DNA from: Candidatus Kerfeldbacteria bacterium
Lineage (GTDB): Bacteria; Patescibacteriota; Patescibacteriia; SBBC01
Direction of reading: 5' to 3'
Assembly (NCBI GenBank): GCA_043799405.1
Contig: JAZDNT010000002.1
Location: 235,320 to 299,319, forward strand
DNA length: 64,000 nucleotides
Below, piece after piece: positions 6,660 to 58,373 of this stretch. Positions within the stretch are counted from its first letter, which is position 1. Each line of letters starts with the position of its first letter. Under the pieces are notes generated by a model. The model saw nothing but the letters and a program-made list of their open reading frames with translations, made no database searches and had not been told where the DNA came from. Position numbers and translations under genes: made by a program.

Positions 6660-6660
6660 C

Positions 6661-14129: not shown

Positions 14130-14639
14130 ATGCAGTATACCGTTCCGCAGTTCATCGACGTCGAGGACAAGATCATCGGACCGATATCGGTCCGGCAGTT
14201 CCTTACCTTCCTCGTCTGCGCAGCGCTCATCTTTGCGAACTACGAGATCGTCTATAAGGTATTCCTTCCGAACTTCTGGGTATTCGCGATCTCATCGATT
14301 TTTATCTTCGCTGTCGCAGGTACCTTCGCTTTTTTAAAGATCAACGGCCGCCCCTTTCACTACTTTCTCTTGAACTTTCTCGTTACGATGCAGAAACCAC
14401 GCCTTCGGGTATGGAACAAACGGCTGCGGCGCGCAGACCTCATTCGGCCGGAAGAGGTGATCGAGATAATTGAGGCGATCCCGATAAAGAAACCGCTCAC
14501 GATCAGTAAGCTCACTGAGCTATCGCTCATCGTTGATACCGGAGGCGCCTACCAAGAAGCAAGCAGCGACCTGTCGGAGAAAAAGGAAGAGCGTTCTACG
14601 AAGGAAGAAAACGTAAGAGATATTTTTTCGGAGCCGTAA
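14130..14639 (+). CDS. PrgI-family (VirB3-like) small T4SS membrane protein
   Basis: The N-terminus MQYTVPQFIDVEDKIIGPISVRQFLTFLVCAALIF followed by a second TM helix matches the PrgI-family pattern as I recall it. It sits directly upstream of the VirB4 ORFs. Confidence 0.75.
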   Translation: MQYTVPQFIDVEDKIIGPISVRQFLTFLVCAALIFANYEIVYKVFLPNFWVFAISSIFIFAVAGTFAFLKINGRPFHYFLLNFLVTMQKPRLRVWNKRLRRADLIRPEEVIEIIEAIPIKKPLTISKLTELSLIVDTGGAYQEASSDLSEKKEERSTKEENVRDIFSEP

Positions 14640-14642
14640 CCT

Positions 14643-15344
14643 ATGGCAAAGACAAAGATTATCAGGCAGAAGCCGAGCGAAAAGATTTCGCACAACGCGC
14701 CGTCAACGCAGCGCTTCCTCGACATCCTTGAGATCAAGGACGATGTCGTCGTCTTAAAGGACGGGTCTGTACGCGCCGTTCTCTTGGTTTCCTCGATCAA
14801 CTTCGACCTTAAGTCCGAGGAGGAGCAGAACGCCGTTATTTCGAGCTATGTGCAGTTTTTGAACTCGATTGAGTTCCCGCTGCAGATCGTCATGCAGTCC
14901 CGAAAACTGAACATCGACCGCTACCTTGAGAAGCTGAAAGAGCTCGAGAAGCAGCAGACGAACGAGCTTTTAAAGTCGCAGACCGTCGAGTATCTTCAGT
15001 ACATACAGGAGCTGGTCGAGATCGCAGACATCATGACGAAACGATTCTACGCGGTCGTTCCGTACACCGGTTCGGCTATGACGACGAAGAAGTTCATGTC
15101 GCGGCTCGTCGATGCTTTCTCGCCGACGAACGTTATCCATTTGAAGCAGAAGAAGTTCGAGGAGTACAGGTCGGAACTGTTCAAGCGGGTGGAATTCGTG
15201 ATGGACGGTCTCGGGTCAGCAGGACTGAAGTCCGCGATCCTCGACACGCAGAGCCTTATCGAGCTGTACTACAACACGTATAACCCAGAAACGTCCTCGC
15301 AGGAGCACATGGTCGAGGTCGGAAAGTTACAAGTTGAATCCTAA
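14643..15344 (+). CDS. Protein resembling the VirB4 N-terminal domain (233 aa), encoded separately from the ATPase
   Basis: LEIKDDVVVLKDGSVRAVLLVSSINFDLKSEEEQNAVISSYVQFLNSIEFPLQIV resembles the N-terminal segment of Gram-positive VirB4 (PrgJ/TcpF/Orf16-type) proteins. Confidence 0.65.
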   Translation: MAKTKIIRQKPSEKISHNAPSTQRFLDILEIKDDVVVLKDGSVRAVLLVSSINFDLKSEEEQNAVISSYVQFLNSIEFPLQIVMQSRKLNIDRYLEKLKELEKQQTNELLKSQTVEYLQYIQELVEIADIMTKRFYAVVPYTGSAMTTKKFMSRLVDAFSPTNVIHLKQKKFEEYRSELFKRVEFVMDGLGSAGLKSAILDTQSLIELYYNTYNPETSSQEHMVEVGKLQVES

Positions 15345-15349
15345 TACCT

Positions 15350-17257: not shown

Positions 17258-17811
17258 AGCGTTACTTCCTTATTGCGGCGCCTATCATCGTCGCCGGGAT
17301 AGTGACGTACGTGGCAATGAGGTTTATCAACGGGAGCAATGAGAATATATCGAACGTTTCGGTCGTCGTTATCAATGCGAATACTACGAACGCGACGGAC
17401 GCATCGAGAAATGTGAACGCAAAGCCGTCAAGCAGGGATCAGGTCCTCTCGCTCGCCAGGCTCTTCTCCGAACGTTACGGAACGACGCTCACCGATGCGC
17501 CGAACGCCAACATCGATAGCGTTCTTCCGTTCGCAAGCGCTTCATTGAAAGAAACGCTGAATCGATTGAGAAGCCGGCCATTGATCAACGCTGGCAAAAG
17601 CGTTAGTACAACGAGCATCGCGCTCGCCTTCAAGATCGTTTCTCTAGACGATAAGGACGGGACCGCAGAGACCGTTGTATCGCTTCAGCGGAAAGAAGAT
17701 GCAGGATCAGGAGCGCCAATAGTATTTATGCAAGATATGCGTCTCAGTTTCGTTTTCGAGGATGAAGAATGGAAGGTGAGCGCGGCGCTCTGGAGCGCAA
17801 GAACGCAGTAA
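17254..17811 (+). CDS. Bitopic membrane protein (185 aa); candidate VirB8-like component
   Basis: ATGA overlap with virB4. One N-terminal TM helix (YFLIAAPIIVAGIVTYVAM), an Asn-rich linker and a C-terminal domain of about 120 aa. The VirB8 assignment rests only on topology, size and position. Confidence 0.6.
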   Translation: MKRYFLIAAPIIVAGIVTYVAMRFINGSNENISNVSVVVINANTTNATDASRNVNAKPSSRDQVLSLARLFSERYGTTLTDAPNANIDSVLPFASASLKETLNRLRSRPLINAGKSVSTTSIALAFKIVSLDDKDGTAETVVSLQRKEDAGSGAPIVFMQDMRLSFVFEDEEWKVSAALWSARTQ

Positions 17812-17814
17812 CGT

Positions 17815-18603
17815 ATGGCAGCGCAGCAAGAGAGCCAGAGCGAATCGCAGTACCGGCGTTCATTACAGCGCGGGAAACGGCAGGAACAGCAACCCGATAC
17901 AGAACCTGGCACAGAAGGACTCGAAGAGATCGGAGGAGGGGCTCAACCGGGCGGCGATACAACCGGAGGCTATACGAACGTTCTCGAAGACGGGGGAGCA
18001 AGGAGAAGATCGCCTCAAAAGGAAACACAGCAGCAAGGCGGTATAGGCATGTCGCCTGAAACGTACAAGTCCGGCAGCGAAGAGCAGTATGAACGCGCTG
18101 CGCAGGAAGACAGTCAGAGACAGCAGCAGAAAAGTTCAGCCGATGTTGAACAAGAAAAAACAGCAGAGGAAGACCGCGAACAACAGGAGCAGATGGCGAC
18201 ACAGGACCGGCGCCGGCAGCAGCCCGGACCAGAAGAAGCAAAGCGTACCGCTGAACTCGAAAAGGCCGCAGCAGCAGGTGGCGATGTCACGAAGAAAGCG
18301 AGCCTTCGCGAGAACGTCCAGCAGTCAATGCGGAATGCGGCAGCGCAACGGCTTAAACAGGTCGCACAGCAGCGCGTACAGTCGTTCCTTAAAACCATTA
18401 TTCTCAATAATCCCTGGGTACGGGGCGCACTGCTCGTATTGGTAGGATTGGTGCTTAGTTTATTCCTTTTTTTCATGATTTCGATTGTAACAGTATCAAT
18501 AATTTGTGAATGGGGCGAAAAAATTCCCTTTTCCGGACCGGTCGTTAACGTCATTTCGCAAATGGCAACGGGCATGCAGTGTCCGAACCTCCCGACGAAG
18601 TAA
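17815..18603 (+). CDS. Tail-anchored membrane protein with a Q/E/R-rich disordered N-terminal region of about 200 aa
   Basis: Low-complexity QQ/EE/RR-rich sequence followed by the hydrophobic segment ALLVLVGLVLSLFLFFMISIVTVSIICEW near the C-terminus. Confidence 0.7.
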   Translation: MAAQQESQSESQYRRSLQRGKRQEQQPDTEPGTEGLEEIGGGAQPGGDTTGGYTNVLEDGGARRRSPQKETQQQGGIGMSPETYKSGSEEQYERAAQEDSQRQQQKSSADVEQEKTAEEDREQQEQMATQDRRRQQPGPEEAKRTAELEKAAAAGGDVTKKASLRENVQQSMRNAAAQRLKQVAQQRVQSFLKTIILNNPWVRGALLVLVGLVLSLFLFFMISIVTVSIICEWGEKIPFSGPVVNVISQMATGMQCPNLPTK

Positions 18604-18620
18604 CAGTATTTATATGTAAA

Positions 18621-20033
18621 ATGAAAATAATTCACCGTATTGCAATCATCAGCGTCGCTGCAGTATGCATATTTATTGTGTCGTTCAGGACCGTTAACGC
18701 ACAGAAAACGGAAGAAGCGACGTGCGATCCGGCGAAATCGCTCTGCTTTACCCCGAACGTCGAAATTCCAGGACTCTTTACGGGGACGAAGACCGTCGAT
18801 GAAACGCTCTTCGGTACGTACGTGAGCAGCTTCTACATTTTCTTCGCGGGAGTCGCCGGCATCCTTGCGGTCGTCATGATCATGTGGGGCGGGTTCCACT
18901 ACATCACCTCGCTTGGAAACCCGCAGCGCATGAAGGAAGGGAAGGACATCATCAACAACGCGATCATCGGCCTCATCCTCGTTCTCACATCGTACCTACT
19001 GCTACGTACGATCAATCCGCGCCTCACGACGCTCATAATCCCGCCGGTCGGCTACTACAGCCCGATATACCAGACCGACATCTACTGCAATGCACAGGAT
19101 AAGGTAAACGGAAATACCCTTGCAACGGATGCGGCGAGGAAAGCAGGAAAATTCTGTACGAGCGACGGGCAGACGAAAGAGCAGCTGACCGTCGAGTATA
19201 CAAATGAGAAAGGCGGTAAACAGACCTGCGTTTCGCTCGAGATCACCGAAAAAGTACTAAACGAACAGAAGGTGTTGACTCAGATAGAAAACGGATGGCA
19301 AGAGCAGCTTGTGTGCTTCCCTAAACAGGAAACAGTACAGGATCCAAAGACAAATACAGTATCGAGCAAGTATCTGTATAAACTACGCGATGTGGCAGGT
19401 ACGAGCGGAGTGTGTGAAGATAATACAATGACGCCGGATGCGCAGTGCGCCGTTACGCAGAAAATGCTGTCCCTGGCTGGCGGGAAGTACCTGATTGGTG
19501 CATGCAAGAACTCGAACGTCGCAGCTGCATTTTGGTTTGTTGGGTGGACGGGGAAAGACGTATGCCACTACTATCAGTTTCTGAATTGTCCGACAGCGAC
19601 CACAGAGGCGGTTTCCTGTAGTGCTGCTGGCGCAGGCGTCAATTCAGCATGCTGGGACGAAAAGGGACCGAGGTACGTTGCCGATATCGGAGGCGGCAGC
19701 CTCCAGTCATACTGCGTTGAGCCGAATATTAGTCCTGTTATTGAACATGTTGATGCGCGCTGTTGTTCAAAAACCATTAAGGAAGAAATTGTCTGTTCGC
19801 CGTTGTCTGTCCTGACGGACATGGGTTACTATAATGTACAATGCGGTAGCTTCGAAGAGCTCGACGGTTTCTTTGCCTCAATAAACGAGGAAACGATTCA
19901 GGATGAAATAGGAATGTCGAAAGAGCATATTTTTGTAACTAAGGGTGGCACTGGAAAGAAGGACTGTCCGTCAAAAAAATGTTGGACGACCATATGGCTC
20001 ATCAATATGAACAAAAAGCTACCATGGGAATAA
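18621..20033 (+). CDS. Secreted protein with a VirB2/TrbC-like two-helix pilin core and a Cys-rich C-terminal domain of about 330 aa
   Basis: I prefer the ATG at 18621 (MKIIHRIAIISVAAVCIFIVSFRTVNA signal) over the track start at 18579, which overlaps the upstream gene. The core is FYIFFAGVAGILAVVMIMWGGFHYITSLGNPQRMKEGKDIINNAIIGLILVLTSYLLLRTINP. It is a paralog of the core in the 21300 gene. Confidence 0.75.
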   Translation: MKIIHRIAIISVAAVCIFIVSFRTVNAQKTEEATCDPAKSLCFTPNVEIPGLFTGTKTVDETLFGTYVSSFYIFFAGVAGILAVVMIMWGGFHYITSLGNPQRMKEGKDIINNAIIGLILVLTSYLLLRTINPRLTTLIIPPVGYYSPIYQTDIYCNAQDKVNGNTLATDAARKAGKFCTSDGQTKEQLTVEYTNEKGGKQTCVSLEITEKVLNEQKVLTQIENGWQEQLVCFPKQETVQDPKTNTVSSKYLYKLRDVAGTSGVCEDNTMTPDAQCAVTQKMLSLAGGKYLIGACKNSNVAAAFWFVGWTGKDVCHYYQFLNCPTATTEAVSCSAAGAGVNSACWDEKGPRYVADIGGGSLQSYCVEPNISPVIEHVDARCCSKTIKEEIVCSPLSVLTDMGYYNVQCGSFEELDGFFASINEETIQDEIGMSKEHIFVTKGGTGKKDCPSKKCWTTIWLINMNKKLPWE

Positions 20034-20056
20034 CGACACAATAAATCATCAACACT

Positions 20057-21298
20057 ATGACATTCAACTGGAAACGCATCGGGCTCGTCGTCGGTTTCGT
20101 CCTCATCACCATCGGGATCGGCATTACGATATACTTCGTATTCTTCAAAGGGTTGTTCGGAGTTGGATTGAACCGCAATGAGAACATCAATGGCGCGGAA
20201 TTCCCGAACATCAACGCGAACAGGAACGTGAACGCTCCGCTGATCAACGTTAACGTTCAAGTCCCGAACATCAACGTTTCCCTTGAACCGGGCCCTATCG
20301 CGAAGGGCGGAAAGACGACCGTGAGCCCGGTCGCACCGACGATACCGGGCGGCGCGACGCTCGCGCCGAACGGAAAAGACCTCATCTACTACGATCCGGT
20401 AACAGGAAAGTTCTACCAGATCTCGCCGGACGGAAGGACAAAGACGCTCCTCTCGCCCGATACGTACCCAGCCGCGGACAAGATCACCTGGTCGCCGCTT
20501 AAAGACAAGGTGATCCTCGAGTTCCCCGATGGGAGCAAGATCATCTACGATATCCGGCAGAAACGTCAGTACACGCTCGCGCCGGAAATGGAGGACATCG
20601 GATTCTCCCCGACGGGGGACAAGATCACGTTCAAGTTCATCGGGAGCGACGAATCGGATCAGCTCCTCGTCATGTCGAACTTCGACGGTTCGGGCGCTGA
20701 AACGCTCGAGCCGCTCGCCGACAAAGCGAATCAGTTCGATGTCAACTGGTCCCCGTCGGGCAACATCGTCGCGCTGTTCCAGGAATCGATCAATGCGACC
20801 CAGCAGCGCGTCATCCCGATCGGCACGAAGAACGAGAACTTCAAATCGTTCGATGTCCCGGGGCGGGGGTTCGAGAGCACCTGGTCACCTGACGGACAGC
20901 AGATCCTTTTCAGCGTATTCCGCAAGGATACAGGGTATAACCCCGAGCTGTACATTGCGGACGGTACGTCCGATTCGATGGGGAATAACACGACAGACCT
21001 CGGTCTTGCGACGTGGCCTGATAAGTGCGTGTTCGGCGCTGGCTCAACGCTCTACTGCGCTGTCCCGCAGTACCTTGACCAGGGTTCCGGCCTCTACACT
21101 GACCTCGCAAAGGACGTTCCAGACGATTTCTACCGCATCGATCTCTCAACCGGGCAGAAGCAGCTGATCGCGCGACCGGTCGATAGCGAGGGAACGTCTG
21201 ACTACAACGCGGTGCAGCTGCGGCTCGCGAACGACGGATCAGCGCTCTACTTCTATGATCAGCGGTCGAGAACGTATCAGAAGATTCTTTTGAGGTAA
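20057..21298 (+). CDS. Membrane-anchored TolB-like beta-propeller protein (413 aa)
   Basis: N-terminal TM helix, an Asn-rich linker (NINANRNVNAPLINVNVQVPNINV), then repeated WSP-type blades (ITWSPLKDK, IGFSPTGDK, VNWSPSGN, STWSPDGQQ). Confidence 0.8.
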   Translation: MTFNWKRIGLVVGFVLITIGIGITIYFVFFKGLFGVGLNRNENINGAEFPNINANRNVNAPLINVNVQVPNINVSLEPGPIAKGGKTTVSPVAPTIPGGATLAPNGKDLIYYDPVTGKFYQISPDGRTKTLLSPDTYPAADKITWSPLKDKVILEFPDGSKIIYDIRQKRQYTLAPEMEDIGFSPTGDKITFKFIGSDESDQLLVMSNFDGSGAETLEPLADKANQFDVNWSPSGNIVALFQESINATQQRVIPIGTKNENFKSFDVPGRGFESTWSPDGQQILFSVFRKDTGYNPELYIADGTSDSMGNNTTDLGLATWPDKCVFGAGSTLYCAVPQYLDQGSGLYTDLAKDVPDDFYRIDLSTGQKQLIARPVDSEGTSDYNAVQLRLANDGSALYFYDQRSRTYQKILLR

Positions 21299-21299
21299 T

Positions 21300-22610
21300 A
21301 TGCGGAGAGCGTTTGCTATCGTTCTGCTCATCATACTCGGATCGCTCTGTATCGAGAGCGGAGCTGTTCGTGCGGATACGCCAAGCAAGGAGTTGGAAGC
21401 TGAGCTAAAGATGAGAACGTGTAAAGCGAACGGATACAAGGATGGCGCGTTCGTATATGACGGAAAAAGTGGATGTGCCGTTGATATGAAGGGCGAGGGC
21501 GGTATTCTCGAGGACTGTAATAGCTCCGTGGCGATCTGCTGCTATGACGATAAGAAAAGCCCGCCAGTGCCTGTATGCCACTACTTATCAGGCGCGAATG
21601 TATCTTCGCCGTTAACGGACGTTTCGACGACGGACGATGGTACGACGAAAACCAAACCGCCGATAACGTTCTCCCCGAACGTTCCTATCCCGGGTTACTT
21701 TGAAGAAACGGGTTATAAAACTGACGATTCGCTGTTGGTAAGGTATTTAAGCGCGTTCTATATATACTTCATCGGCGTTATCGGCATCCTCGCGGTCGTC
21801 ATGATCATGTACGGCGGGTACCACTATATTACTGCGCTCGGGAACCCGCAGCGCATGAACAAGGGTAAGGAGATCATCTCGAGCGCTATCATCGGCCTCA
21901 TTCTTGCACTCACCTCGTTCCTGCTGCTACGGACGATCAACCCCGCGCTCGTGAATTTCTACGGCGTTGTTCCGACGTACATCGCCCGGATCCTCCAGGA
22001 AACTGAAAAGCTCGCAAAACCGGAAAGACACGCTAACCTCAGTATCGATGTATCAAAGACAGGAATGGCAGAGATGCTGCAGCGTGCGAAGACCGCAGGG
22101 TATGACGCGACGATCCTACAGAAAGCCGGAGGGGACAAAGAGCTTGCCTACCATGCCCTTGCGACGATGTTCATTGAATCGAGCGTGAATCCTAATGCGA
22201 TCTCGTCCGCAAACGCGTACGGACTTATGCAGGTATTGCCGTCAACTGCGCAGAGATACGGCGTTGTATTGTCTTCGAGCCTTTTGGACCCGAACATGAA
22301 CATTCACGCCGGCGTCTCGTACCTCTATGACCTCAAAAAGGGCGCGGCGTGCCCGCCGTACAACAGGAGCACGACCGCGCGGAAGATATTCTGCCAGAAA
22401 CCCGACCCGTGTACGGTTACTCAATGGCAGTACGTCCACGCTGCCTACAACGGCGGTCCAGGGGCTAATTATTGCAGCAAGGAAAAATCCTGTCTCGGAT
22501 ATACATGGTGGCAGTGTTCGGTGAATAAAGGATATGCCGAAACGCGTCAGTACGTTTATCGCGCAAAAGCGGTTTACGAATGGCTTGTTGAGCAAAACGT
22601 CTACCCGTAA
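21300..22610 (+). CDS. Fusion protein: signal peptide, Cys-rich segment, VirB2-like hairpin core, then a C-terminal SLT lytic transglycosylase (VirB1-like)
   Basis: Core: FYIYFIGVIGILAVVMIMYGGYHYITALGNPQRMNKGKEIISSAIIGLILALTSFLLLRTINP. SLT motifs: MFIESSVNPNAIS, AYGLMQVLPSTA, AAYNGGPGA (about 22110-22470). Confidence 0.85.
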   Translation: MRRAFAIVLLIILGSLCIESGAVRADTPSKELEAELKMRTCKANGYKDGAFVYDGKSGCAVDMKGEGGILEDCNSSVAICCYDDKKSPPVPVCHYLSGANVSSPLTDVSTTDDGTTKTKPPITFSPNVPIPGYFEETGYKTDDSLLVRYLSAFYIYFIGVIGILAVVMIMYGGYHYITALGNPQRMNKGKEIISSAIIGLILALTSFLLLRTINPALVNFYGVVPTYIARILQETEKLAKPERHANLSIDVSKTGMAEMLQRAKTAGYDATILQKAGGDKELAYHALATMFIESSVNPNAISSANAYGLMQVLPSTAQRYGVVLSSSLLDPNMNIHAGVSYLYDLKKGAACPPYNRSTTARKIFCQKPDPCTVTQWQYVHAAYNGGPGANYCSKEKSCLGYTWWQCSVNKGYAETRQYVYRAKAVYEWLVEQNVYP

Positions 22611-22616
22611 GCGTGT

Positions 22617-23969
22617 ATGACGAAGAAACCTATCTACGTCTGCAATAGCTGCGACGCGCAGTTCTCGAAGTGGCAGGGTCGGTGTTCCGAGTGCGGGAAG
22701 TGGGGTACGGTCGCAGAGACCGCGCCGCCTTCTGATGATCGCAGGGCGGTTACTGGTACGCCCGGAAAGGCGATCGCGTTCTCGGAGGTCTCTGAGGTCG
22801 CGGTACAGCGCATCCCGACCGGTATGGCCGAGCTCGACCGAGTCCTCGGTGACGGGATCGTTCCCGGTTCGCTCGTGCTTATCGGAGGCGATCCGGGTAT
22901 CGGAAAATCGACGCTCGTTCTGCAGCTTGCCATTGCCGTTGCGTCGCACGGTGACGTACTGTACGTTTCGGGAGAAGAATCAGCAGAGCAGATAAAGATG
23001 CGACTGTCGCGGCTGAGCCCGCACGGCGGAACGATACGTTTCTTAGGAGAGACCAACATCGAGACCATTGTCGCGACGATCGATCATGAGAAGCCGACGC
23101 TCGCCGTCATCGATTCGATCCAGACGATGTACTGGCCGCAGATCCCGAGCGAATCGGGGAGCGTCGCTCAGGTCAGAGCTTCGACCGTAAAGCTCCTCGA
23201 GGTCGCGAAGCGCGCACGCGTTGCCGTCATCATCATTGGACACGTGACAAAGGAGGGAATGGTCGCCGGGCCGAAGGCCCTCGAGCACCTCGTCGATACC
23301 GTGCTCTACCTCGAAGGCGACCAGTACCACGCCTACCGGATCCTCCGGAGCGTAAAGAACCGGTTCGGTTCGACGAACGAGGTCGGCGTGTTCGATATGC
23401 GCGACAAGGGTCTCGTCGAAGTGACGAACCCTTCCGAGGTGTTCCTCTCGGAGCGACAGGGCGGTACAGCCGGATCCTGCGTTACCGCCATCATGGAAGG
23501 TTCTCGTCCCTTCCTCGTCGAGGTACAGGCGCTCGTGAACCCTACCGTGTTCGGGATGCCGCGTCGTACGGCTTCTGGTATTGAGTTTAATCGTCTTCAA
23601 CTGCTGCTCGCGGTATTGAGTAAACGGGTCGGTCTGAAACTTGCTTTGCTGGACGTGTTCGTGAACATCGTTGGCGGCGTTCGGGTAAACGAACCGGCCG
23701 CAGACCTCGCGGTTTGCCTTGCGATCGCGTCAGCGGTCCTGAACAAAACGATTGACGCAAGAACGATCGCGATCGGCGAGGTGGGCTTGGGCGGAGAGAT
23801 ACGCGCCGTATCGCAGCTCGATCACCGGCTCGTAGAAGCGAAGAAGCTCGGATTTTCGAGTGCGGTCATTGGCAGCCGTGCAAAGGTAATTAAAAAAACG
23901 ACCGTCAATCTCATTACGGTCAAAACCCTCAGCGAGGCAGTGAGGGACGTTATACGATCGGTTTCATAA
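22617..23969 (+). CDS. radA: DNA repair protein RadA/Sms
   Basis: N-terminal zinc finger CNSCDAQFSKWQGRCSECGKWGT. Walker A GGDPGIGKSTL. KNRFG motif. Lon-like C-terminal domain. Confidence 0.95.
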   Translation: MTKKPIYVCNSCDAQFSKWQGRCSECGKWGTVAETAPPSDDRRAVTGTPGKAIAFSEVSEVAVQRIPTGMAELDRVLGDGIVPGSLVLIGGDPGIGKSTLVLQLAIAVASHGDVLYVSGEESAEQIKMRLSRLSPHGGTIRFLGETNIETIVATIDHEKPTLAVIDSIQTMYWPQIPSESGSVAQVRASTVKLLEVAKRARVAVIIIGHVTKEGMVAGPKALEHLVDTVLYLEGDQYHAYRILRSVKNRFGSTNEVGVFDMRDKGLVEVTNPSEVFLSERQGGTAGSCVTAIMEGSRPFLVEVQALVNPTVFGMPRRTASGIEFNRLQLLLAVLSKRVGLKLALLDVFVNIVGGVRVNEPAADLAVCLAIASAVLNKTIDARTIAIGEVGLGGEIRAVSQLDHRLVEAKKLGFSSAVIGSRAKVIKKTTVNLITVKTLSEAVRDVIRSVS

Positions 23970-30588: not shown

Positions 30589-31419
30589 TTATTCGGCCGT
30601 GCGTGCGGTCGATTCGCCGTACTCGATACTGAACTTCACACGGCCGTACGGCATTTTCTTCGGCGGATTGTCGAGGTCGAGCTCGACCCGATTCGGGATG
30701 AGGGACGTTTCCTGGCGTTCACGAGGCGCTCCCTCCTCGTTGAACAATTTCGGCATTTCCAGTTTAGTCGCTGGCGTTCCAGCTAAGTCAATGACTGCGC
30801 CGAGGTGGACGCTGTCGCTTTCTCCCTCGGCCGTCTTGGTGATCTCCCTGTACACGGTCGTCTTCGCATCCATGACGAATTTTTCAACACGCTTTTTGTC
30901 ATTATCAACGGCCACCGTTACGTCACCTGATGCAACCATAGCGTCAAGCGTTTCCTTAGAAGGTCGAAGCACTGCCTCGGGGAACGTCGCAAGTTCGCCA
31001 TCGCCCCAACTTGAGCCGCTTGTACCTCTTTCGGTACGACCATGGCGCACATTTGAAAGGTGGATATTTTTTCCGATGACATCAAGATTATCGAACTCGA
31101 CGCTGCCGACGTTCCATGTCTCATAGCGCTCTTTGTCCGATTCAGTCTGTACATTCGGATCTTGTTCGGTAATAGGAGTTCCCTGTTCATCGACTAAGAC
31201 CTTTCCGGTCTCGGGATCGGTTTTTATCCGTTCACCGGTAAATGAACCCTTGATGAACGTTGCACCGTTCTGACCTTTTTCGTATTTGGTCTGTTGATAT
31301 TCCCGGCCGTCGTACGCATACCTAGTATCGAACGTTTCGTTTCCTTCAATGTCGGTTTCATCTGAACCTTCAATGTATTGATCGAGTTTTGGTGCTCGTC
31401 CGTGTTCAGGGTTTTCCAT
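30589..31419 (-). CDS. Hypothetical acidic soluble protein (276 aa)
   Basis: Long ORF of plausible composition with no TM segment or signal. It has an AT-rich upstream region. No motif recognised. Confidence 0.7.
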   Translation of the reverse strand: MENPEHGRAPKLDQYIEGSDETDIEGNETFDTRYAYDGREYQQTKYEKGQNGATFIKGSFTGERIKTDPETGKVLVDEQGTPITEQDPNVQTESDKERYETWNVGSVEFDNLDVIGKNIHLSNVRHGRTERGTSGSSWGDGELATFPEAVLRPSKETLDAMVASGDVTVAVDNDKKRVEKFVMDAKTTVYREITKTAEGESDSVHLGAVIDLAGTPATKLEMPKLFNEEGAPRERQETSLIPNRVELDLDNPPKKMPYGRVKFSIEYGESTARTAE

Positions 31420-31539
31420 AATCGATTAGAGTTTAATTAAGTAACAGAATACTATACACGATATTTTCCTTGTAGTCAAGTGTAACACGAATTAACAGTT
31501 CTTTGTAAGAACTCACTTGATTTGTTATTCGGATTACTA

Positions 31540-31840
31540 TGGCGCGCCCGGCAGCCCCGCACTATTCGCTACGCTCAAGTGCGGGATCTTCGAGATTTGT
31601 CCAGCGGCCCTTTTTGTTACAATCGACTATTACAGTTGCTGACCGCCGCCCTGCCTGGTGCGCTCGGGAGGATTTGAACCTCCGGCCCTCAGCTCCGCAA
31701 GCTGAGGCTCTATCCGGACTGAGCTACGCGCGCCCAGGCAGGGCGGCGTCTGAATAATTTAAGTAACGTTGATATATTAGCTGATGCGGTACCTGCCTCG
31801 CACCCGCAGTGGTGCGGGGTCCGGACTGAGCTACGGGCGC
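31540..31840 (-). other. tRNA-Arg-like outer shell: a 5' fragment (acceptor, D-stem, D-loop) and a 3' acceptor+CCA fragment bracketing the intact tRNA-Arg
   Basis: On the minus strand, GCGCCCG-TA-GCTC-AGTCCGGA (31840-31820) is near-identical to the inner gene's 5' end and is then broken by CCCCGCAC. Far downstream, GTGCGGGG-CTGC-CGGGCGC-G-CCA (31562-31540) has an acceptor strand that is a perfect complement of GCGCCCG. Confidence 0.4.
31656..31733 (-). tRNA. tRNA-Arg (anticodon GCG)
   Basis: Manual cloverleaf: GCGCGCG TA GCTC AGTCCGGATA GAGC C TCAGC TTGCGGA GCTGA GGGCC GGAGG TTCAAAT CCTCC CGAGCGC A CCA. There is one G-A mismatch in the acceptor stem. CCA is encoded. Confidence 0.85.
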
Positions 31841-31914
31841 ACGCCGGAATATCTTAGCATACCATTGAGTTATTACAACCAGATGAATACCCGTCGCTTG
31901 TACAGCCAATAAAC

Positions 31915-31938
31915 CACCGCATGTGTCGATGCACGGTG
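31915..31938 (-). terminator. Hairpin downstream of the 166-aa membrane protein gene
   Basis: On the minus strand, CACCGTGCAT-CGACA-CATGCGGTG is followed by GTTTATT. The stem is imperfect. Confidence 0.35.
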
Positions 31939-31956
31939 TTTCCTGAACGATTTCTA

Positions 31957-32457
31957 TTAGATCCTGAACAGCCTTCCTATCGCGTCCGAGGTCGCCTCGT
32001 CCTCCTTTGAAAGGTCTTCCTGAATGAACCTGCGAAGCTGTTTTCTGATCTCAACGGGGTTCGCATCCTCGAGCGCGATGCCGATCAGCGGACGGAGCGC
32101 GCTCTTGAAGGTGAAGTAGATCGTTTTTGCCGGCGGTTTGTAGATGATCCAGAAGTTCTTGATGTCGTCAAACGGGAAGAAGTCCTTTCCGATGCCGATG
32201 CCGTCCTCGAATATTGTCGCGGTCAGCACCCGCGGTTTCTGGCGCGAGCGGTAGTAGAAGATCGACCAGCCGATGATGACAATGAAGGCGAACAGGGGAT
32301 TTCTCGAGAAGATCGCGTACGTTAACAGCGCAAGCCCGATGACCGTCATGATGGCGTACCACATCCGCGTATAGGCATAGTGGGGGATTTCCGGAAACTT
32401 CCACGATAGCAGCGAGCTGCCGTGGTCGATCACTTGGTTTTGTTCTGGTTGCGCCAT
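31957..32457 (-). CDS. Hypothetical membrane protein (166 aa, two TM helices plus a soluble C-terminal domain)
   Basis: TM helices MWYAIMTVIGLALLTYAIF and LFAFIVIIGWSIFYY, followed by a domain of about 100 aa. Confidence 0.75.
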   Translation of the reverse strand: MAQPEQNQVIDHGSSLLSWKFPEIPHYAYTRMWYAIMTVIGLALLTYAIFSRNPLFAFIVIIGWSIFYYRSRQKPRVLTATIFEDGIGIGKDFFPFDDIKNFWIIYKPPAKTIYFTFKSALRPLIGIALEDANPVEIRKQLRRFIQEDLSKEDEATSDAIGRLFRI

Positions 32458-32532
32458 AGGTGCACCTCCTTATGTAGAGTGTACCACGTTTGAACAATTC
32501 AATATATCCACCGAGACCATCGCCGGTTAAAT

Positions 32533-32846
32533 GGTTTTCCCCGCTCCTTGATTTAAGGCATCAAATGATTGCGGGATCGCGCCAATAGCGGAGGGTGAAG
32601 GATTCCCGCCGACCTCCTCGGCTGTGCTCGGAGTTTGGCGGGCAGGCGAACCTACGATCCCGCCTTTGGCGGGCAAGACTCATGAGGAGAGCGGAGGCGG
32701 TAGGATTCGAACCCCGTATAAGCGCTACGCGCTTTACGGGGCAAGCCCCCGATACCTTTGCAGGTATTCCGGTTTTTCAGGCGAAGCCGGATCCGGCTCT
32801 GTCGGGCAAGACTCATGAGGAGAGCGGAGGCGGTAGGATTCGAACC
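32533..32846 (-). repeat. Scrambled tRNA-Ser-derived fragments and direct repeats downstream of the nested tRNA-Ser(UGA) pair
   Basis: A 44-nt direct repeat, GGTTCGAATCCTACCGCCTCCGCTCTCCTCATGAGTCTTGCCCG, occurs at 32846-32803 and 32713-32670. A repeat of about 73 nt (T-loop 3' half, acceptor, trailer hairpin) occurs at 32942-32870 and 32605-32533. There is also a chimeric interrupted T-arm, GTAGGTTC|42 nt|GAATCCTTC. Confidence 0.5.
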
Positions 32847-33061
32847 TACGAGACCTTTTCAGGTCTAGCGGTTTTTCCCGCTCTTTGATCTAGTGTATCA
32901 AATGTTTGCGGGATCGCGCCAATGGCGGAGGGTGAAGGATTCGAACCTTCGAGACCATTGCTGGTCTAACGGTTTTCAAGACCGTCGCTTTCGACCGCTC
33001 AGCCAACCCTCCGCCATTGGCGGGACAAGACTGCCCGATTCAACCACTCTCGCACGCCTCC
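32825..33061 (-). tRNA. Interrupted tRNA-Ser(UGA)-like gene (outer) whose 150-nt anticodon-loop insert contains the complete inner tRNA-Ser(UGA)
   Basis: Exon 1 (33061-33026): GGAGGCG TG CGA GAGTGGTTGAA TCG G GCAGT CTTG. Exon 2 (32875-32825): AAA ACCGC TAGACCTGAAAAGGTCTC GTAGG TTCGAAT CCTAC CGCCTCC G. Joined, these give an 87-nt type-II cloverleaf with one A-C mismatch in the anticodon stem. Whether it is expressed or spliced is unknown. Confidence 0.5.
32923..33012 (-). tRNA. tRNA-Ser (anticodon UGA)
   Basis: GGAGGGT TG GCT GAGCGGTCGAA AGC G ACGGT CTTGAAA ACCGT TAGACCAGCAATGGTCTC GAAGG TTCGAAT CCTTC ACCCTCC G CCA. All stems are Watson-Crick and it has a long variable arm. Confidence 0.9.
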
Positions 33062-33106
33062 GCTCTCCCTACGAATTGTCACCTTAGACCACTCAGCCAA
33101 CCTTCC
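33062..33106 (-). other. Orphan 5' fragment of a third type-II tRNA (acceptor plus D-arm 5' part)
   Basis: GGAAGGT TG GCT GAGTGGTCTAA is followed by non-tRNA sequence that ends in GGAGAGC, which pairs with the trailer of the outer Ser(UGA). I could not assemble a colinear 3' partner. Confidence 0.4.
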
Positions 33107-33114
33107 ATAAATCA

Positions 33115-33462
33115 CTACCGACGAATTTGGTTATTTTCTGGTTTCGTGTGGTGGTATTTACCGAGGATGTCTTTTGCAACCATATTGAACGCTTCCTCAA
33201 TATCGATGTTGAGTTGGTTCGAAAGCCTGCAGAGCGCGAAGAAGAGGTCGCCGATGCCGTCCTTGAAGATCATAGTATGTTTCTTCACGAACGCAACTCG
33301 TTCCTTCTCCGATTTGTAGCGGAGGTGCTGCGACATTTCGATGAGTTCCTCGTGGAGGTGGTCGAATTTGTCGACATTCGGGACGTCTTTCCAACGGTTG
33401 CGTCGTGAAAATACCTTCACAAGCGCCTGCGCATCACGCATGGAACTGATTCGTTGTTGCAT
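33115..33462 (-). CDS. MazG-like nucleotide pyrophosphohydrolase (115 aa)
   Basis: Helical protein with HLHEELIEMSQ...IGDLFFALCRLSNQLNIDIEEAF, which fits the EExxE...D pattern of the MazG family. Confidence 0.8.
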   Translation of the reverse strand: MQQRISSMRDAQALVKVFSRRNRWKDVPNVDKFDHLHEELIEMSQHLRYKSEKERVAFVKKHTMIFKDGIGDLFFALCRLSNQLNIDIEEAFNMVAKDILGKYHHTKPENNQIRR

Positions 33463-33478
33463 AGGTATTGTTAATTAT

Positions 33479-33573
33479 CTGGCGGGACACTCGAGTTAGG
33501 TACCCAACCCGCGCAAGCATTATACGGGTTTTCTGACGATTTTTCTAGAGGGTGATTCGAGGTACATGGGTCA
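33479..33573 (-). repeat. Intergenic repeat element, copy 1 (promoter plus leader upstream of the MazG-like gene)
   Basis: Shares these blocks with copy 2: tggcgg[g/a]acac..gagttaggtacc, ttttctgacgattttt, gagg.ca.g.gggtc. On the minus strand it carries TATAAT (33524-33519). Confidence 0.5.
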
Positions 33574-33583
33574 CTCAAAAACT

Positions 33584-34270
33584 CTATGTGCGGTAAGATC
33601 GTGACTCGATTCTCTCGGCGCGTAATTTCAGAACTCGCTCCGAGATTAATCGGGCTATATCTTCTCGAGAATACTTCGGATGTTTCGAGTATGCTGGGTG
33701 CAAAGTACTTAAAACCCCCCAAATCGCTTGGTGATCACCGGGTTGAGCATCGACCCATTCATTAAATATTGACAGACGAGCTAATTCGCCGATGTCGCGT
33801 TCTTTTCGCTCATCAGTTGTCATTGGCAGTAGCGCACTTTCGAAAATGAGATGAAAATCTGGACCGAATACTTTATTACATATCTGACGTGTCCGGGGAA
33901 TATGGTAATCCGCTGCAACGATAACAAGACTGTGCCACTTTTTCGGGATCGCAAAGAGTGTTTTTACAAAGTATGCGTTTCCAATCGTTTCTTTTGACTG
34001 CTCCTCTTTGAGTATACAACTCGATGGACAGCCAAGCTGTTCAGCAAATTCTGCCATAGCCGCAGCCTCGGTTCGTAACGGCACCATTACACTCGATGAT
34101 GCCCAAGCTCCTGACATTACTATCACTGGAGCAAGCTTGTCATTCCACAATTGAACCGCCTTTTTGACTCGAACACGTGAGTTGTTTTCAAGTGATCCGT
34201 CAGGGTTTATTCCCCCGCCGAATACTACAATGGCGTCAAACATGTGAACATTTACTTTTTTTACTAGCAA
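33584..34270 (-). CDS. DUF218/YdcF-family protein
   Basis: FDAIVVFGGGINPDGS...VIVMSGAWASS...TEAAAMAEF...KETIGNAYF...VIVAADYHIPRT fits the YdcF/ElyC pattern. Confidence 0.8.
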   Translation of the reverse strand: MLVKKVNVHMFDAIVVFGGGINPDGSLENNSRVRVKKAVQLWNDKLAPVIVMSGAWASSSVMVPLRTEAAAMAEFAEQLGCPSSCILKEEQSKETIGNAYFVKTLFAIPKKWHSLVIVAADYHIPRTRQICNKVFGPDFHLIFESALLPMTTDERKERDIGELARLSIFNEWVDAQPGDHQAIWGVLSTLHPAYSKHPKYSREDIARLISERVLKLRAERIESRSYRT

Positions 34271-34298
34271 TTGGGTCTACTCCAATACTTTGCTCTCT

Positions 34299-34392
34299 TG
34301 GCGGAACACATGAGTTAGGTACCACCGCCAGAGGGATATTGTAAGGCTTTTCTGACGATTTTTATAGGCGCGAATTTGAGGCAGGTGGGTCG
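34299..34392 (-). repeat. Intergenic repeat element, copy 2 (upstream of the DUF218 gene)
   Basis: See copy 1. On the minus strand it carries TACAAT (34343-34338). Its downstream end, TCCGCCAAGAGAGCAAAGTATTGGAGTAGACCC, resembles the 3' end and trailer of the outer tRNA-Ser(GCU), TCCGCCAAGAGAACCAAGTATCGTACGACCC. Confidence 0.5.
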
Positions 34393-34409
34393 GGTGGGCC
34401 GGCAGCTTT

Positions 34410-35147
34410 TTATTTTTTAAACGCCTTTACCTTCCCACGTGGTGGGTAGCGAAGATCGTGTGTATGCATCACATAGTTCGAATATGCCAGTCGTTTTTTT
34501 TGCTCAAAACGTTGAAATCCACTTAACCTAATCCGTTCTTTCGGATCCTTATAGGCAGAGATTTGAGCTTTGATGTCAGTAATATAGAACCATCGAAAAC
34601 CTCCCAGCCAGGCTCGTCTACAGTAATCGGCGTCTTCACTACGACGGCTAACCGCTGACAAATAACCCAATTTGCCGAACACTTGTTTTGAAAAAGAAAA
34701 GAAACAGCCAGCTAAATTCCAGTATGGCCATGGATCCAAGTAGTGGCGTCCATTTTTGGCTAATGCGAAACCACTCATGTAGGTATAAGCACCGAGTATG
34801 GCTTTATCTTGCCAGTCTCTATGCGCCTTCATTAATGTGTCAACCCAGTTACTACTTTGGATGGTAACGTCGTTATCGAGGATGGTATAATAATCCATCC
34901 TAGGGTAACGTCGTAGGGCTACATTGACGCTTTTCGGTTTACCGATGTTTTTTTCGTTGCGCTGGAGTAGGATGGCAGGATTTTTTGCAATTAATTTCTG
35001 TATCGCCGTTCTTGTTTTCAGGTCGCTATGATCATCGGCAATAAGTAATGTGCTTTTTTTCAGATCTGTCGTCCGCACCAGACTCCCAATACAACGCCGA
35101 GTAAGCGTCGGTTTATTATATACGCAGACAATAATAAGGTGTTTCAT
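34410..35147 (-). CDS. Family 2 glycosyltransferase
   Basis: IIVCVYNKPTLTRRCIGSL...LIADDHSD...ILDNDV fits the GT-A fold (DxD) pattern. Confidence 0.8.
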   Translation of the reverse strand: MKHLIIVCVYNKPTLTRRCIGSLVRTTDLKKSTLLIADDHSDLKTRTAIQKLIAKNPAILLQRNEKNIGKPKSVNVALRRYPRMDYYTILDNDVTIQSSNWVDTLMKAHRDWQDKAILGAYTYMSGFALAKNGRHYLDPWPYWNLAGCFFSFSKQVFGKLGYLSAVSRRSEDADYCRRAWLGGFRWFYITDIKAQISAYKDPKERIRLSGFQRFEQKKRLAYSNYVMHTHDLRYPPRGKVKAFKK

Positions 35148-35193
35148 AAAACCATTTTAGTATGCACCCGGGTCGTACGATACTTGGTTCTCT

Positions 35194-35523
35194 TGGCGGA
35201 GAGGGAGAGATTCTCCCGCTCCTTTTCTTAATATGCGAAACGATTCGCGGGATCCCGCCCATCGAGGGCGGGAGAACTCTCGATCCCGCAATATGGCGGG
35301 ATAACGGTTTAGTCGCCGCCCCAGAGCGGAGAGGGAGAGATTCGAACTCTCGAAGCGAGTATAACCCCGCTTAACGGTTTAGCAAACCGCTGCCTTCAGC
35401 CACTCGGCCACCTCTCCGCTCTGGGGCGGGATCCTCGTCCCGTTTTATGGCGGGACGGGACAAACCGCTGCGCCTGCCCCGCACCCATTGTGGTGCGGGG
35501 TTCAACCGCTCGGCCACCTCTCC
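35194..35523 (-). tRNA. Triply interrupted tRNA-Ser(GCU)-like gene (outer) containing the intact tRNA-Ser(GCU) in its anticodon-loop insert
   Basis: Colinear parts: GGAGAGG TG GCC GAGCGGTTGAA | 24-nt hairpin | CAGGCGCA GCGGT TTG | 148-nt insert | CTAA ACCGT TA TCCCGCCATATTGCGGGA TC GAGAG TTC | 60-nt insert | GAAT CTCTC CCTCTCC G CCA. About 2-4 extra nt near the D/anticodon junction remain unexplained. Confidence 0.5.
35327..35417 (-). tRNA. tRNA-Ser (anticodon GCU)
   Basis: GGAGAGG TG GCC GAGTGGCTGAA GGC A GCGGT TTGCTAA ACCGT TAAGCGGGGTTATACTCGCTTC GAGAG TTCGAAT CTCTC CCTCTCC G. CCA is not encoded. Confidence 0.9.
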
Positions 35524-35552
35524 GCTCTGCGCCCTTTGATCGCGTTAGAGCG

Positions 35553-36206
35553 TTATCCCTTTGCAATGGTAAGTGCGGTGATGTGTTCCATTCCGGCTTC
35601 GCGGAGGACGTGCGCAACCTCGGAAATCGTTGCACCGGTCGTGAACACGTCGTCGATGATTATACCACGTTTCGGTACAAAATCAACGGCGTGTGCTAAT
35701 GCGAATGCATGCGCGACGTTCCTGGCGCGCTCGTTCTCATGCAGCGTGACCTGAGGAACAGTGTTCTTAATCCTGATGACCAGCGGCATGACTGGTATCT
35801 TGAGAACGGACGCTGCTTCTTCAGAGATGAGCATTGCCTGGTTAAACCCGCGCGAGCGTTGCCGTTTTGAATGAAGCGGTACGGGTATGATACAATCAGC
35901 CGTTAAATATTCTTCTGCAAGTTTTCCAAGCGCGCGACCGAGGATGGTGCTTATAACCCTGCCGCCGCCATACTTGAGTTGCTTGATGACTTGCCCGAGG
36001 ATCCTTGAATCGTACGAACCAAGACAGAGCAGACGGTCGACGTGTTTTACCGGTTCAGCGCGGTCGATATGAGGACCGCACGATAAAAGGCACGATTCGC
36101 ATAGCCATACGCCGTCGGTGCCGCACCCGCGGCAAGAAGGCGGAAAGAGGATATTGAGAACTAGTTCGCGGAGATGGTGAATAATCGGTGGCATAGTACG
36201 CGCCAC
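35553..36206 (-). CDS. comF: ComF-family phosphoribosyltransferase-like competence protein
   Basis: N-terminal Cys cluster (CRGCG...CESC). The C-terminal PRTase motif is IIIDDVFTTGATISE. Confidence 0.85.
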   Translation of the reverse strand: MARTMPPIIHHLRELVLNILFPPSCRGCGTDGVWLCESCLLSCGPHIDRAEPVKHVDRLLCLGSYDSRILGQVIKQLKYGGGRVISTILGRALGKLAEEYLTADCIIPVPLHSKRQRSRGFNQAMLISEEAASVLKIPVMPLVIRIKNTVPQVTLHENERARNVAHAFALAHAVDFVPKRGIIIDDVFTTGATISEVAHVLREAGMEHITALTIAKG

Positions 36207-56072: not shown

Positions 56073-56082
56073 CGTAACGCAT

Positions 56083-58058: not shown

Positions 58059-58070
58059 TTCGATACTACT

Positions 58071-58373
58071 ATGGCCCTCGTCCAAAAACGCGATACAAGA
58101 AAGAACGTAGTCTACCTGGCGCTGCTCGGTGTTGCCGTCGCCGGGGGCATTGTCGCGCTCTTCTTTTTTAAGCCAAAAGGAAGCACCGTTGATACAACGA
58201 ACACCAGCTATGTAAAGGGGCGCGATCAGCCGACCTACACAACGTTCGGAGAGGACCTGTACGAAAGTGAGCAGTACAAACAGCTGCGCGACTATCTTGA
58301 AGGTTCGACCCCGATACAGCCCACTAACGCCAATACTTCTCAGGGCAATCCGAACCCGTTCCGTTCTCAGTAA
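58071..58373 (+). CDS. Small bitopic membrane protein (100 aa) in the pilus operon
   Basis: TM helix VVYLALLGVAVAGGIVALFFF. Compact spacing to both neighbours. Confidence 0.55.
   Translation: MALVQKRDTRKNVVYLALLGVAVAGGIVALFFFKPKGSTVDTTNTSYVKGRDQPTYTTFGEDLYESEQYKQLRDYLEGSTPIQPTNANTSQGNPNPFRSQ

Follow-up and report, generated by a model that had tools for sequence, protein, structure and literature searches.

How does a bacterial tRNA gene come to lie between the two ends of a second gene for the same tRNA? The question is raised by a tRNA-Arg(GCG) locus in a 64-kb stretch of DNA (the window) from Candidatus Kerfeldbacteria, a bacterium of the Candidate Phyla Radiation (CPR, Patescibacteria). 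Only one tRNA was called at this locus by ARAGORN and as Rfam RF00005, a tRNA-Arg(GCG) at 31733-31656 on the minus strand with an encoded CCA and an RF00005 score of 61.8 bits against a gathering score of 29. It lies within a 301-bp unit (31540-31840), and sequence comparison supports the reading of this unit as an intact tRNA-Arg(GCG) gene within the two ends of a second, eroded tRNA-Arg gene. The same comparison supports the view that the outer pieces are complementary halves of one tRNA-Arg gene, homologous to the intact tRNA-Arg(GCG) genes of relatives. We call the whole arrangement a nest, the outer gene its shell, and the inner gene with its two complementary arms the cassette. The loci of relatives (L009, L010 and so on) were found through homologues of a 166-aa protein encoded beside the nest and by one metagenome scan, and the coordinates of nest features are given on the minus strand of the window.

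The tRNA-Arg nest

31820-31840, minus strand: shell piece P1, GCGCCCGTAGCTCAGTCCGGA, with the acceptor 5' strand GCGCCCG, TA, the D-stem 5' strand GCTC and the start of the D loop, AGTCCGGA
31796-31819, minus strand: hairpin H1, CCCCGCACC-ACTGC-GGGTGCGAGG, within the shell D loop and starting with the break motif CCCCGCAC (31819-31812)
31779-31795, minus strand: shell piece P2, CAGGTACCGCATCAGCT, a remnant of the D-stem 3' strand and the anticodon-stem 5' strand (ATCAGC)
31748-31778, minus strand: AT-rich spacer from shell to cassette, without similarity to the matching spacers of L037, L054 and L057
31734-31747, minus strand: cassette leader arm, GCCGCCCTGCC-TGG, pairing with 31658-31645
31656-31733, minus strand: inner tRNA-Arg(GCG), called by ARAGORN and as Rfam RF00005
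31645-31658, minus strand: cassette trailer arm, CCA-GGCAGGGCGGC, overlapping the encoded CCA
31611-31644, minus strand: spacer after the cassette, unconserved in relatives
31594-31610, minus strand: shell piece P3, GGGCCGCTGGACAAATC, with the variable loop, a degenerate (mutated) T-stem 5' strand and the T loop
31555-31593, minus strand: hairpin H2, TCGAAGATCCCGCAC-loop-GTGCGGGG, separating the shell T loop from its T-stem 3' strand and ending with the break motif GTGCGGGG (31562-31555)
31540-31554, minus strand: shell piece P4, CTGCCGGGCGCGCCA (CTGC-CGGGCGC-G-CCA), with the T-stem 3' strand, acceptor 3' strand, discriminator and CCA

P1 was identical to the first 21 nt of the inner tRNA-Arg at 20/21 positions; the first-pass annotation of this DNA had noticed this piece at 31840-31820, and its position and match held, while its count of 19/21 came from another starting point. 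A search of the 64 kb with P1 at up to three mismatches returned only P1 and the inner gene, with 0.00 matches expected from 100 shuffles, so the claimed similarity stands clear of a shuffled background. At the other end of the unit the annotation had placed an acceptor 3' strand within CTGC-CGGGCGC-G-CCA, and this was borne out: GCGCCCG (31840-31834) and CGGGCGC are perfect 7-nt complements and pair in the minimum-energy folds of the nest both as RNA and as DNA (z-scores of -4.9 and -4.4, respectively). Both folds show the inner cloverleaf, the outer acceptor stem closed, and H1 and H2 as local hairpins. The stem of H1 is formed by CCCCGCACC and, five bases downstream, GGGTGCGAGG; that of H2 is formed by GTGCGGGG and, upstream of it, GATCCCGCAC. 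A long-range pairing between the break motifs CCCCGCAC and GTGCGGGG, which had been proposed, is absent from the minimum-energy and centroid folds, in which each motif closes its own local hairpin. The folding results support the view that the two motifs are arms of two separate hairpins and that H1 and H2 are members of one GC-rich hairpin family.

The annotation had also held that no further arms of the outer gene could be found, which proved wrong, as P2 (31795-31779) and P3 (31610-31594) were recognised from their homology to intact genes and to shells in relatives. P2 was 16/17 identical to TAGGTGCCGCATCAGCT of L037, and its GCATCAGCT agrees with the intact genes of L012 and L037; the counterpart of P3 in the intact L012 gene is GGGCCGCAGGTTCAAATC, and CAAATC is common to P3 and to the shells of L037 and L010. 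P4 was 14/15 identical to its L037 counterpart. When the Arg shell pieces were joined without their inserts, ARAGORN called no tRNA in the window or in L054. The anticodon-stem 3' strand is missing from both shells, the anticodon is missing from the window shell and retained as GCG in the L054 shell, and the cassette junction in the window (CATCAGCT|AATAT) is eroded. A target duplication of CATCAGC around the Arg cassette was considered; it is present at 7/7 positions in L037 and 5/7 in the window, was judged too weak and was not used.

Could the unit be a chance resemblance or an assembly artefact, such as a chimera of strain variants? The window does come from a metagenome-assembled genome (MAG), but no chance matches were expected, and the same nest architecture is repeated in independent assemblies from NCBI, JGI, ENA and Logan. 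We regard this explanation as practically negligible.

The anticodon GCG had been noted as unusual for a bacterium. This is true of bacteria generally but not of this lineage, since GCG was present in all of the relatives with a tRNA-Arg at this locus (5/5); with regard to tadA, no deaminase motif was found within the 64-kb window. The working tRNA-Arg(GCG) gene (31656-31733) has an acceptor-stem mismatch, G5.A68, where relatives have T5-A68 (L012, L054) or C5-G68 (L010, L037).

Nested serine tRNA genes and their hairpin inserts

The window has three tRNA genes, Arg(GCG), Ser(TGA) and Ser(GCT), and all three are nested, so that the Arg nest is indeed the same arrangement as the Ser shells to which the annotation had likened it:

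32508-33106, minus strand: Ser(TGA) nest, with the tRNA at 33012-32923 within shell B (5' part 33061-33026, 3' part 32875-32824), itself within shell C (5' part 33106-33068)
35194-35523, minus strand: Ser(GCT) nest, with the tRNA at 35417-35326 in the anticodon loop of the shell (between 35461 and 35312)

The Ser(TGA) nest has at least three levels, with more 3' fragments downstream and a decayed second cassette/target junction (32604-32508). Joined in silico, its shell B was called as tRNA-Ser(tga) by ARAGORN; it has an A.C mismatch and no CCA, and it carries a short leader/trailer helix of its own (GAGAGC/GCTCTC), as expected of a former inserted cassette. The Ser(GCT) shell is also interrupted in the D loop (35500-35477, H1-like) and in the T loop (35273-35214, a 60-nt double hairpin), and without its inserts it was called as tRNA-Ser(gct). 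Removal of the inserts thus restores tRNA-Ser genes and not the tRNA-Arg gene, which agrees with the earlier suggestion that the Arg shell is the more eroded. The outer Ser(GCT) gene has three clean inserts, no disabling substitution and an encoded CCA, and the inner, working Ser(GCT) gene is without CCA (GCTC instead of GCCA), as are the inner Ser genes of L029 and L054.

At the Ser cassettes, the shell halves abut exactly (TTG|CTAA and CTTG|AAAA), with no overlap, gap or repeated crossover segment, which argues for insertion and against the decay of tandem copies. Inserts of the TCCCGC...GCGGGA type lie directly 3' of CTTG in Ser(TGA) anticodon loops (window 33026, L054 and L037), of TTTG in Ser(GCT) (35461) and of GTTC in T loops (window 35274 and L011). 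They have terminal palindromes and no target duplication, and the 3' ends of the Ser-nest inserts are ...GAGCGGGA or ...GGCGGCGA, not a terIS-type palindrome with GTTC/CTCG. Two right-hand junctions (32922-32824 and 32604-32508) share a cassette end of about 86% identity next to target alleles of about 68% identity, both counted by eye; the same cassette end joined to two different target alleles fits repeated insertion. In addition, a 30-nt direct repeat, CGCCTCCGCTCTCCTCATGAGTCTTGCCCG, occurs in the Ser(TGA) nest at 32832-32803 and 32699-32670, 133 nt apart, each copy ending in CTTG followed by a CCCG... hairpin.

These junctions bear on a conventional explanation, in which successive integrase-mediated integrations, one that restored the 3' half of the gene and one the 5' half, were followed by deletion of the element bodies, or a tandem triplication was followed by losses from the outer copies (the 3' part of the first and the 5' part of the last). 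Integration of mobile elements is a known general source of partial tRNA genes (PMC9897764), the region is prone to duplication, as the 30-nt direct repeat in the Ser(TGA) nest indicates, and some fragments are one-sided (the 20-nt 3' repeat of L011, the 3' shell alone in L029, and four 5' pieces against one 3' piece in L054). However, the Ser halves are exactly complementary, which two independent events or random decay would seldom yield; fragments upstream are always 5' parts and those downstream always 3' parts; the inserts measure only about 110-290 bp, and no integrase was found in the window; and such scars do not predict that every nested gene has its own leader/trailer clamp. We therefore consider this origin quite improbable.

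The inserts in D, anticodon and T loops also recall the disrupted tRNA genes of archaea and red algae, with their multiple introns and their split and permuted tRNAs (PMC3218864, PMC3978253). By analogy with the archaeal multi-intron and split tRNAs, the outer gene could be a multi-intron tRNA gene spliced by an unknown bacterial pathway, the inner tRNA lying within an intron. The positions match those of archaeal non-canonical introns, the Ser shells give full tRNAs without their inserts, and the GC-rich complementary leader and trailer resemble the complementary flanks of split-tRNA halves. Such genes, however, need a bulge-helix-bulge and a splicing endonuclease and give the only functional copy, whereas here the inner intact gene functions, and the host is a CPR bacterium. 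No bulge-helix-bulge formed at the nest junctions in the folds: each insert folds as a hairpin on its own, and the clamp helix runs without a break apart from one bulged nucleotide, the discriminator. Neither an EndA splicing endonuclease nor a ligase was seen among the annotated open reading frames (ORFs) of the window. Moreover, the Arg shell without its anticodon and anticodon-stem 3' strand could not be restored, Ser shell B has its A.C mismatch and no CCA, and the acceptor strands of the 5' shells of L054 mismatch the sole available 3' half. As for self-splicing, the P1 pairing of a group I intron requires a U before the insertion, but the base before the nest insertion is G, and the insert is a tRNA gene with palindromes. 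Group I introns are known from tRNA anticodon loops of Patescibacteria (PMC13011429), the same phylum, and share the anticodon-loop site, including position 35/36 as in Ser(TGA) shell B. No group I ribozyme (Intron_gpI) was found by cmscan of 31300-35800 at E <= 10, which returned the tRNAs and chance matches only. Splicing of the outer genes is thus very improbable.

The hairpins themselves recur at equivalent places. A near-identical H1 is found at the equivalent D-loop position of the tRNA-Ser(GCT) shell (35500-35477), and the H1 stem of L057 differs by a compensatory change (CCCAGCACC/GGTGCTGGG). H2 (TCGAAGATCCCGC...GCGGG) occupies one site between the T loop and the T-stem 3' strand in the Arg shells of four genomes, including L010, L037 and, in decayed form, L054, and the equivalent site in a tRNA-Ser(GGA) 3' shell of L029. 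L054 and L037 have an identical double hairpin (CCACCGCC...GGCGGGGCCCCGCCAA...TTGGCGGTGG) in D loops that belong to different Ser shells, and CCCCGTA...TACGGGG hairpins lie at several sites. Within the window, hairpins of the CCCGC type are found only in the three tRNA nests, with isolated octamers outside; the roughly 1.4 kb of nests hold 8 copies of GATCCCGC, and the remaining 62.6 kb hold 7, all without a hairpin partner. This specificity is limited to the CCCGC family, as a census of generic perfect hairpins was not discriminating. Viral contigs scanned for H2 and the double hairpin gave chance matches in GC-rich coding DNA or none.

The hairpin loops often hold GAGCGAAGCGAG, GCGTAGC or GCGGAGC, in either orientation relative to the tRNA (approximate sites: window 31578-31563 and 32735-32723; L010 3780-3760; L054 2365-2380; L057 2325-2345; L029 1-23). 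As DNA, GCGAAGC is known to form a mini-hairpin of unusual stability, and this would hint at intermediates of single-stranded DNA.

Relatives and the leader/trailer clamp

Homologous outer pieces were present in L037, L054, L057 and L010, with P1-like pieces in the first three, so that relatives do retain the trace that would be expected of a true outer gene. In L037 the order is ClpC, ComF, Ser(GCT), Ser(TGA), the 166-aa homologue and Arg, with identities to the window of 62% for ClpC and 33% for the 166-aa homologue. Its Arg nest begins with an outer 5' piece cut by a 16-nt palindrome, a D-loop hairpin and TAGGTGCCGCATCAGCT, and continues with a clamped inner tRNA-Arg(GCG), CAAATC, an H2 with the same stem, and CTGTCGGGCGCGCCA. 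Both L054 and L057 carry an Arg nest; the L054 shell has no D-loop hairpin, retains the outer anticodon loop with GCG, and has a decayed, unpaired H2. L010 has an intact tRNA-Arg followed by a 3' shell bearing H2, and L012 has a clamped cassette without a recognisable shell, from which the shell appears dispensable. In L009, the closest relative (87%), this position is without an Arg gene. The metagenome scan with the 18-mer AAATCTCGAAGATCCCGC gave 41 loci, about 39 of which were chance matches in coding DNA and 2 true nests (L037, L029), and ComF as a probe of genome contigs for orthologous loci gave distant matches only, none with tRNAs.

Shell sequences of one genome were found as working genes in another. 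The acceptor GCGCCCG/CGGGCGC, which belongs to the shell in the window, is that of the functional Arg gene in L010 and L037, and the acceptor and T arm of shell B, with a different D arm, are those of the functional Ser(TGA) gene in L011 and L037. The 5' piece of Ser shell B is identical (36/36) to L037 1370-1405, upstream of the intact L037 gene. Lineage-specific D-loop sequences common to shell and inner gene in L054 and in the window suggest that gene conversion from the inner gene may have taken place.

In several relatives (L037 412-2000, L054 1985-2575 and L012 742-1446) the tRNA nest as a whole is turned round with respect to the same neighbouring protein genes, whose order is conserved. 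L054 1010-1370, identical in L055, has four tandem tRNA-Ser(TGA) 5' halves before the working gene and one 3' fragment after it. At L011 1-240 a second copy of the terminal 20 nt of tRNA-Ser(TGA) (GAATCCTACCGCCTCCGCCA) lies about 130-140 nt downstream (230 bp including the repeat), as would fit a small insert that entered the T loop after GTTC and supplied a 3' end of its own.

The leader and trailer arms form a clamp around the inner tRNA. In the window Arg cassette, the arms (31747-31734/31658-31645) and the flanking pair 31748-31644 give 15 contiguous pairs, with the discriminator bulged and the encoded CCA of the inner tRNA paired. Four Arg cassettes have a helix of 15-17 bp and three Ser cassettes one of 10-12 bp; un-nested tRNAs have none. 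Across the four aligned Arg cassettes, 10 pairs have two-sided changes and 0 have one-sided changes, with no G.U pair in the core, and these values were unmatched by any shuffle or slid register. Since the arms change only two-sidedly, selection or a copying mechanism must keep them exactly complementary; the lack of wobble pairs leans towards complementarity at the DNA level.

An alternative reading takes the whole 300-nt unit as a composite precursor in which a selected outer tRNA-derived fold, with a closed acceptor stem, CCA, H1 and H2, would stabilise, fold or direct the processing of the inner tRNA, which it would carry at the tip of its former anticodon arm. Several observations speak for a functional RNA scaffold of this kind: shell pieces are conserved at 62% ClpC identity while spacers are unalignable; the outer acceptor is paired at 7/7 positions, has its GCCA and closes the minimum-energy fold; the H1 stem has its compensatory change in L057; the leader/trailer helix covaries; and no promoter was found between the shell 5' piece and the inner gene. 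But the cassette of L012 exists without a recognisable shell, and extra hairpins split the outer acceptor strand and D stem in L037, both of which argue against a strict structural requirement for the shell. L054 is without H1 and its H2 is unpaired, the loop motifs occur in both orientations relative to the tRNA and so point to elements at the DNA rather than the RNA level, the clamp core is free of G.U pairs, and a CCA paired with the leader should hinder RNase P. On balance we think a scaffold unlikely, if less so than splicing or classical scars.

A proposed tRNA-carrying mobile cassette and its nearest known counterparts

The explanation that we prefer, and to which we give an even chance, is that the nests are palindrome-ended, tRNA-carrying mini-cassettes that inserted into tRNA genes and replaced the gene they broke. 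At the Arg locus, a resident tRNA-Arg(GCG) gene (the shell) would have been broken open in its anticodon arm by a small cassette consisting of a complete tRNA-Arg(GCG) between two complementary 14-15-nt arms. Such cassettes would be small, non-autonomous DNA elements with palindromic ends. Their insertion would be site-specific, leave no target duplication and fall in those parts of a tRNA gene that encode its loops, where the DNA can extrude as single-stranded hairpin loops. A cassette bearing a tRNA would supply the function it destroys, so that the invasion could be tolerated and fixed, and repeated rounds would give the Russian dolls, two to five deep, of the Ser genes. Transcription of the inner gene would start upstream of the shell 5' piece and give a long precursor; cutting of the leader/trailer helix would then free the inner tRNA, whose ends would mature in the normal way. 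The enzyme could be an HUH/IS91-like single-strand transposase or a GIY-YIG nuclease that drives homing. Mobility of the cassettes is inferred from the anatomy of the nests, the exact Ser junctions, the recurrence in relatives, the restriction of the hairpins to nests and the covarying clamp, all of which support this model. GTTC is present in nearly every T loop, and CTTG in the anticodon loops of Ser(UGA) and Arg(GCG), which would explain a restriction to tRNA genes.

Several results weigh against these mobile cassettes. No transposase, integrase, HUH or GIY-YIG gene was found in the 64-kb window: the Pfam scan, which covered 54 window ORFs and left out three ORFs of 1,212-2,094 aa and five of 97-836 aa, showed no HUH (Y1/Y2) transposase among those 54, and the GIY-YIG proteins of L037 and L057 used as phmmer queries had no match in the six frames of the window. 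Neither a cassette at a non-homologous site nor an empty/filled strain pair was present among the loci compared. The Arg junctions are too eroded to be scored against the CTTG/GTTC rule, H1, H2 and the double hairpin lie at other sequences, and the right ends of the inserts are GCGGGA, which is not IS91-like. The clamp-arm sequences vary between cassettes, unlike ends recognised by a transposase. Promoter scans upstream of the Arg shell gave no significant site, as the AT-rich TTGTAA-16-TAAGAT seen by eye scores 8/12 and is sub-threshold, nor did any promoter come to light in the stretch from the shell 5' piece to the inner gene. Finally, and most seriously, shell pieces are near-identical in the window and L037 (21/21 for CAAATCTCGAAGATCCCGCAC and 36/36 for the Ser shell B 5' piece) beside unalignable spacers, a conservation far above what neutral relics should show at this divergence. 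It points to selection on the shell, gene conversion, or ongoing exchange or re-creation of nests, and the covarying H1 stem likewise points to selection on the shell or to ongoing exchange or gene conversion.

Among known systems, integrative elements offer the closest parallel. Such elements, among them phages, ICEs and genomic islands, are said, in work attributed to Reiter (1989) and Williams (2002), to enter tRNA genes and restore them (reviewed in PMC9897764). As in the nests, the insertion site lies within a tRNA gene, the anticodon and T loops being frequent targets, the tRNA sequence carried keeps the gene working, and partial copies are left. Integrative elements, however, are of kb scale, encode an integrase, carry the displaced part of the tRNA alone, and are marked at their far end by a single partial copy in direct repeat, whereas the Arg and Ser nests have inserts of about 110-290 bp with a whole tRNA gene and two complementary halves, with no repeated crossover segment at the Ser junctions. 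A duplication of an att site was also considered and rejected, given two complementary pieces within 301 bp, no integrase found in the window and Ser junctions without a repeated segment. In behaviour, the best match to the nests would be a target-restoring integrative element reduced to a tRNA gene between hairpins, with some features of insertion that recall HUH elements.

The HUH elements of the IS91 family insert 3' of CTTG or GTTC (rarely TTTG) without target duplication, have palindromes at their ends, form single-stranded circles and carry adjacent cargo (PMC13181058). The TCCCGC-type inserts of the Ser nests lie after the same CTTG, GTTC or TTTG, also lack a target duplication and have terminal palindromes; they differ in being tiny, in a far end of GCGGGA instead of GTTC/CTCG, and in the other sites of H1, H2 and the double hairpin, beside the eroded Arg junction.

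SegB of phage T4 is a free-standing GIY-YIG endonuclease in a tRNA cluster and drives preferential inheritance or duplication of the tRNA region (PMC2330249, PMC13096335). Similarly, GIY-YIG ORFs adjoin nests in L037 and L057 and read into tRNA sequence, but the window has none, the relatives' proteins are catalytic domains of 80-90 aa without a DNA-binding domain, and homing normally replaces sequence precisely, without nested halves. These small ORFs lie directly upstream of the tRNA or shell at L037 1638-1895 (Pfam PF01541, 4e-13) and L057 2074-2397. Elsewhere, and anecdotally, homologues were seen 34 nt after a tRNA-Leu in L061, an unrelated metagenome contig, and in L059 without a nearby tRNA.

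Small palindromic invaders of genes are also familiar, such as the Rickettsia palindromic elements (RPEs), repetitive extragenic palindromes (REPs) and miniature inverted-repeat transposable elements (MITEs), the GC clusters of mitochondria and double-hairpin elements. The nest hairpins share with them short, GC-rich, sometimes double hairpins in several copies inserted in structured RNA genes. REPs, MITEs and RPEs are dispersed over genomes, whereas in the window the nest hairpins are confined to tRNA nests, and some members come with a complete tRNA gene.

No description of nested tRNA genes in bacteria or the CPR was found in the full-text literature, where the group I introns of Patescibacteria tRNAs (PMC13011429) and the tRNA fragments left by integration (PMC9897764) came nearest, and there is a substantial possibility that the nests represent a new class of element. 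A fuller proposal, which we put forward tentatively and think somewhat more likely to fail than to hold, is an undescribed class of palindrome-ended mobile cassettes of about 100-300 bp in Kerfeldbacteria, with a complete tRNA gene as cargo, homing into matching tRNA gene loops, rescuing the function they disrupt and serially replacing alleles so that Russian-doll fossils remain, the shells perhaps being co-opted as a scaffold for transcription and processing. If the cassettes are mobile, a selfish element would here enter an essential single-copy gene of a very small genome by a new route, one that does not kill the host as the element brings a spare, and tRNA alleles could be replaced horizontally among uncultivated CPR bacteria. 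That dead shell pieces are so deeply conserved could point to a function at the RNA level, and a clamp of 15-17 bp paired with the encoded CCA raises the question of how pre-tRNAs mature in CPR bacteria. In practical terms, tRNA finders report the inner gene only, and fragment-aware pipelines could miscount the tRNA sets of these lineages.

The genes around the nests, which encode RecG, a P-type copper ATPase (CopA), DsbD/cupredoxin, ClpC, ComF, HtpX and LemA, are of bacterial type. The 166-aa protein encoded beside the Arg nest is 100% identical to one from a Candidatus Kerfeldbacteria MAG; look-ups of the window's own genes by exact protein sequence gave no record. An archaeal origin of the DNA was ruled out on these neighbours, with the closest ComF among the genome matches coming from a Jorgensenbacteria (CPR) MAG. 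Elsewhere in the window, a type IV secretion-like cluster at 14130-23969 encodes a PrgI-like protein, a VirB4/TraG-like ATPase, two proteins with T4SS pilin domains and a lytic transglycosylase, followed by a RadA/Sms-like protein. Type IV pilus genes (PilM, PilB/PilT-like ATPases and PilC) are located at 54954-62906, and three very large ORFs (1,212-2,094 aa) at 648-10299 and 48567-54851.

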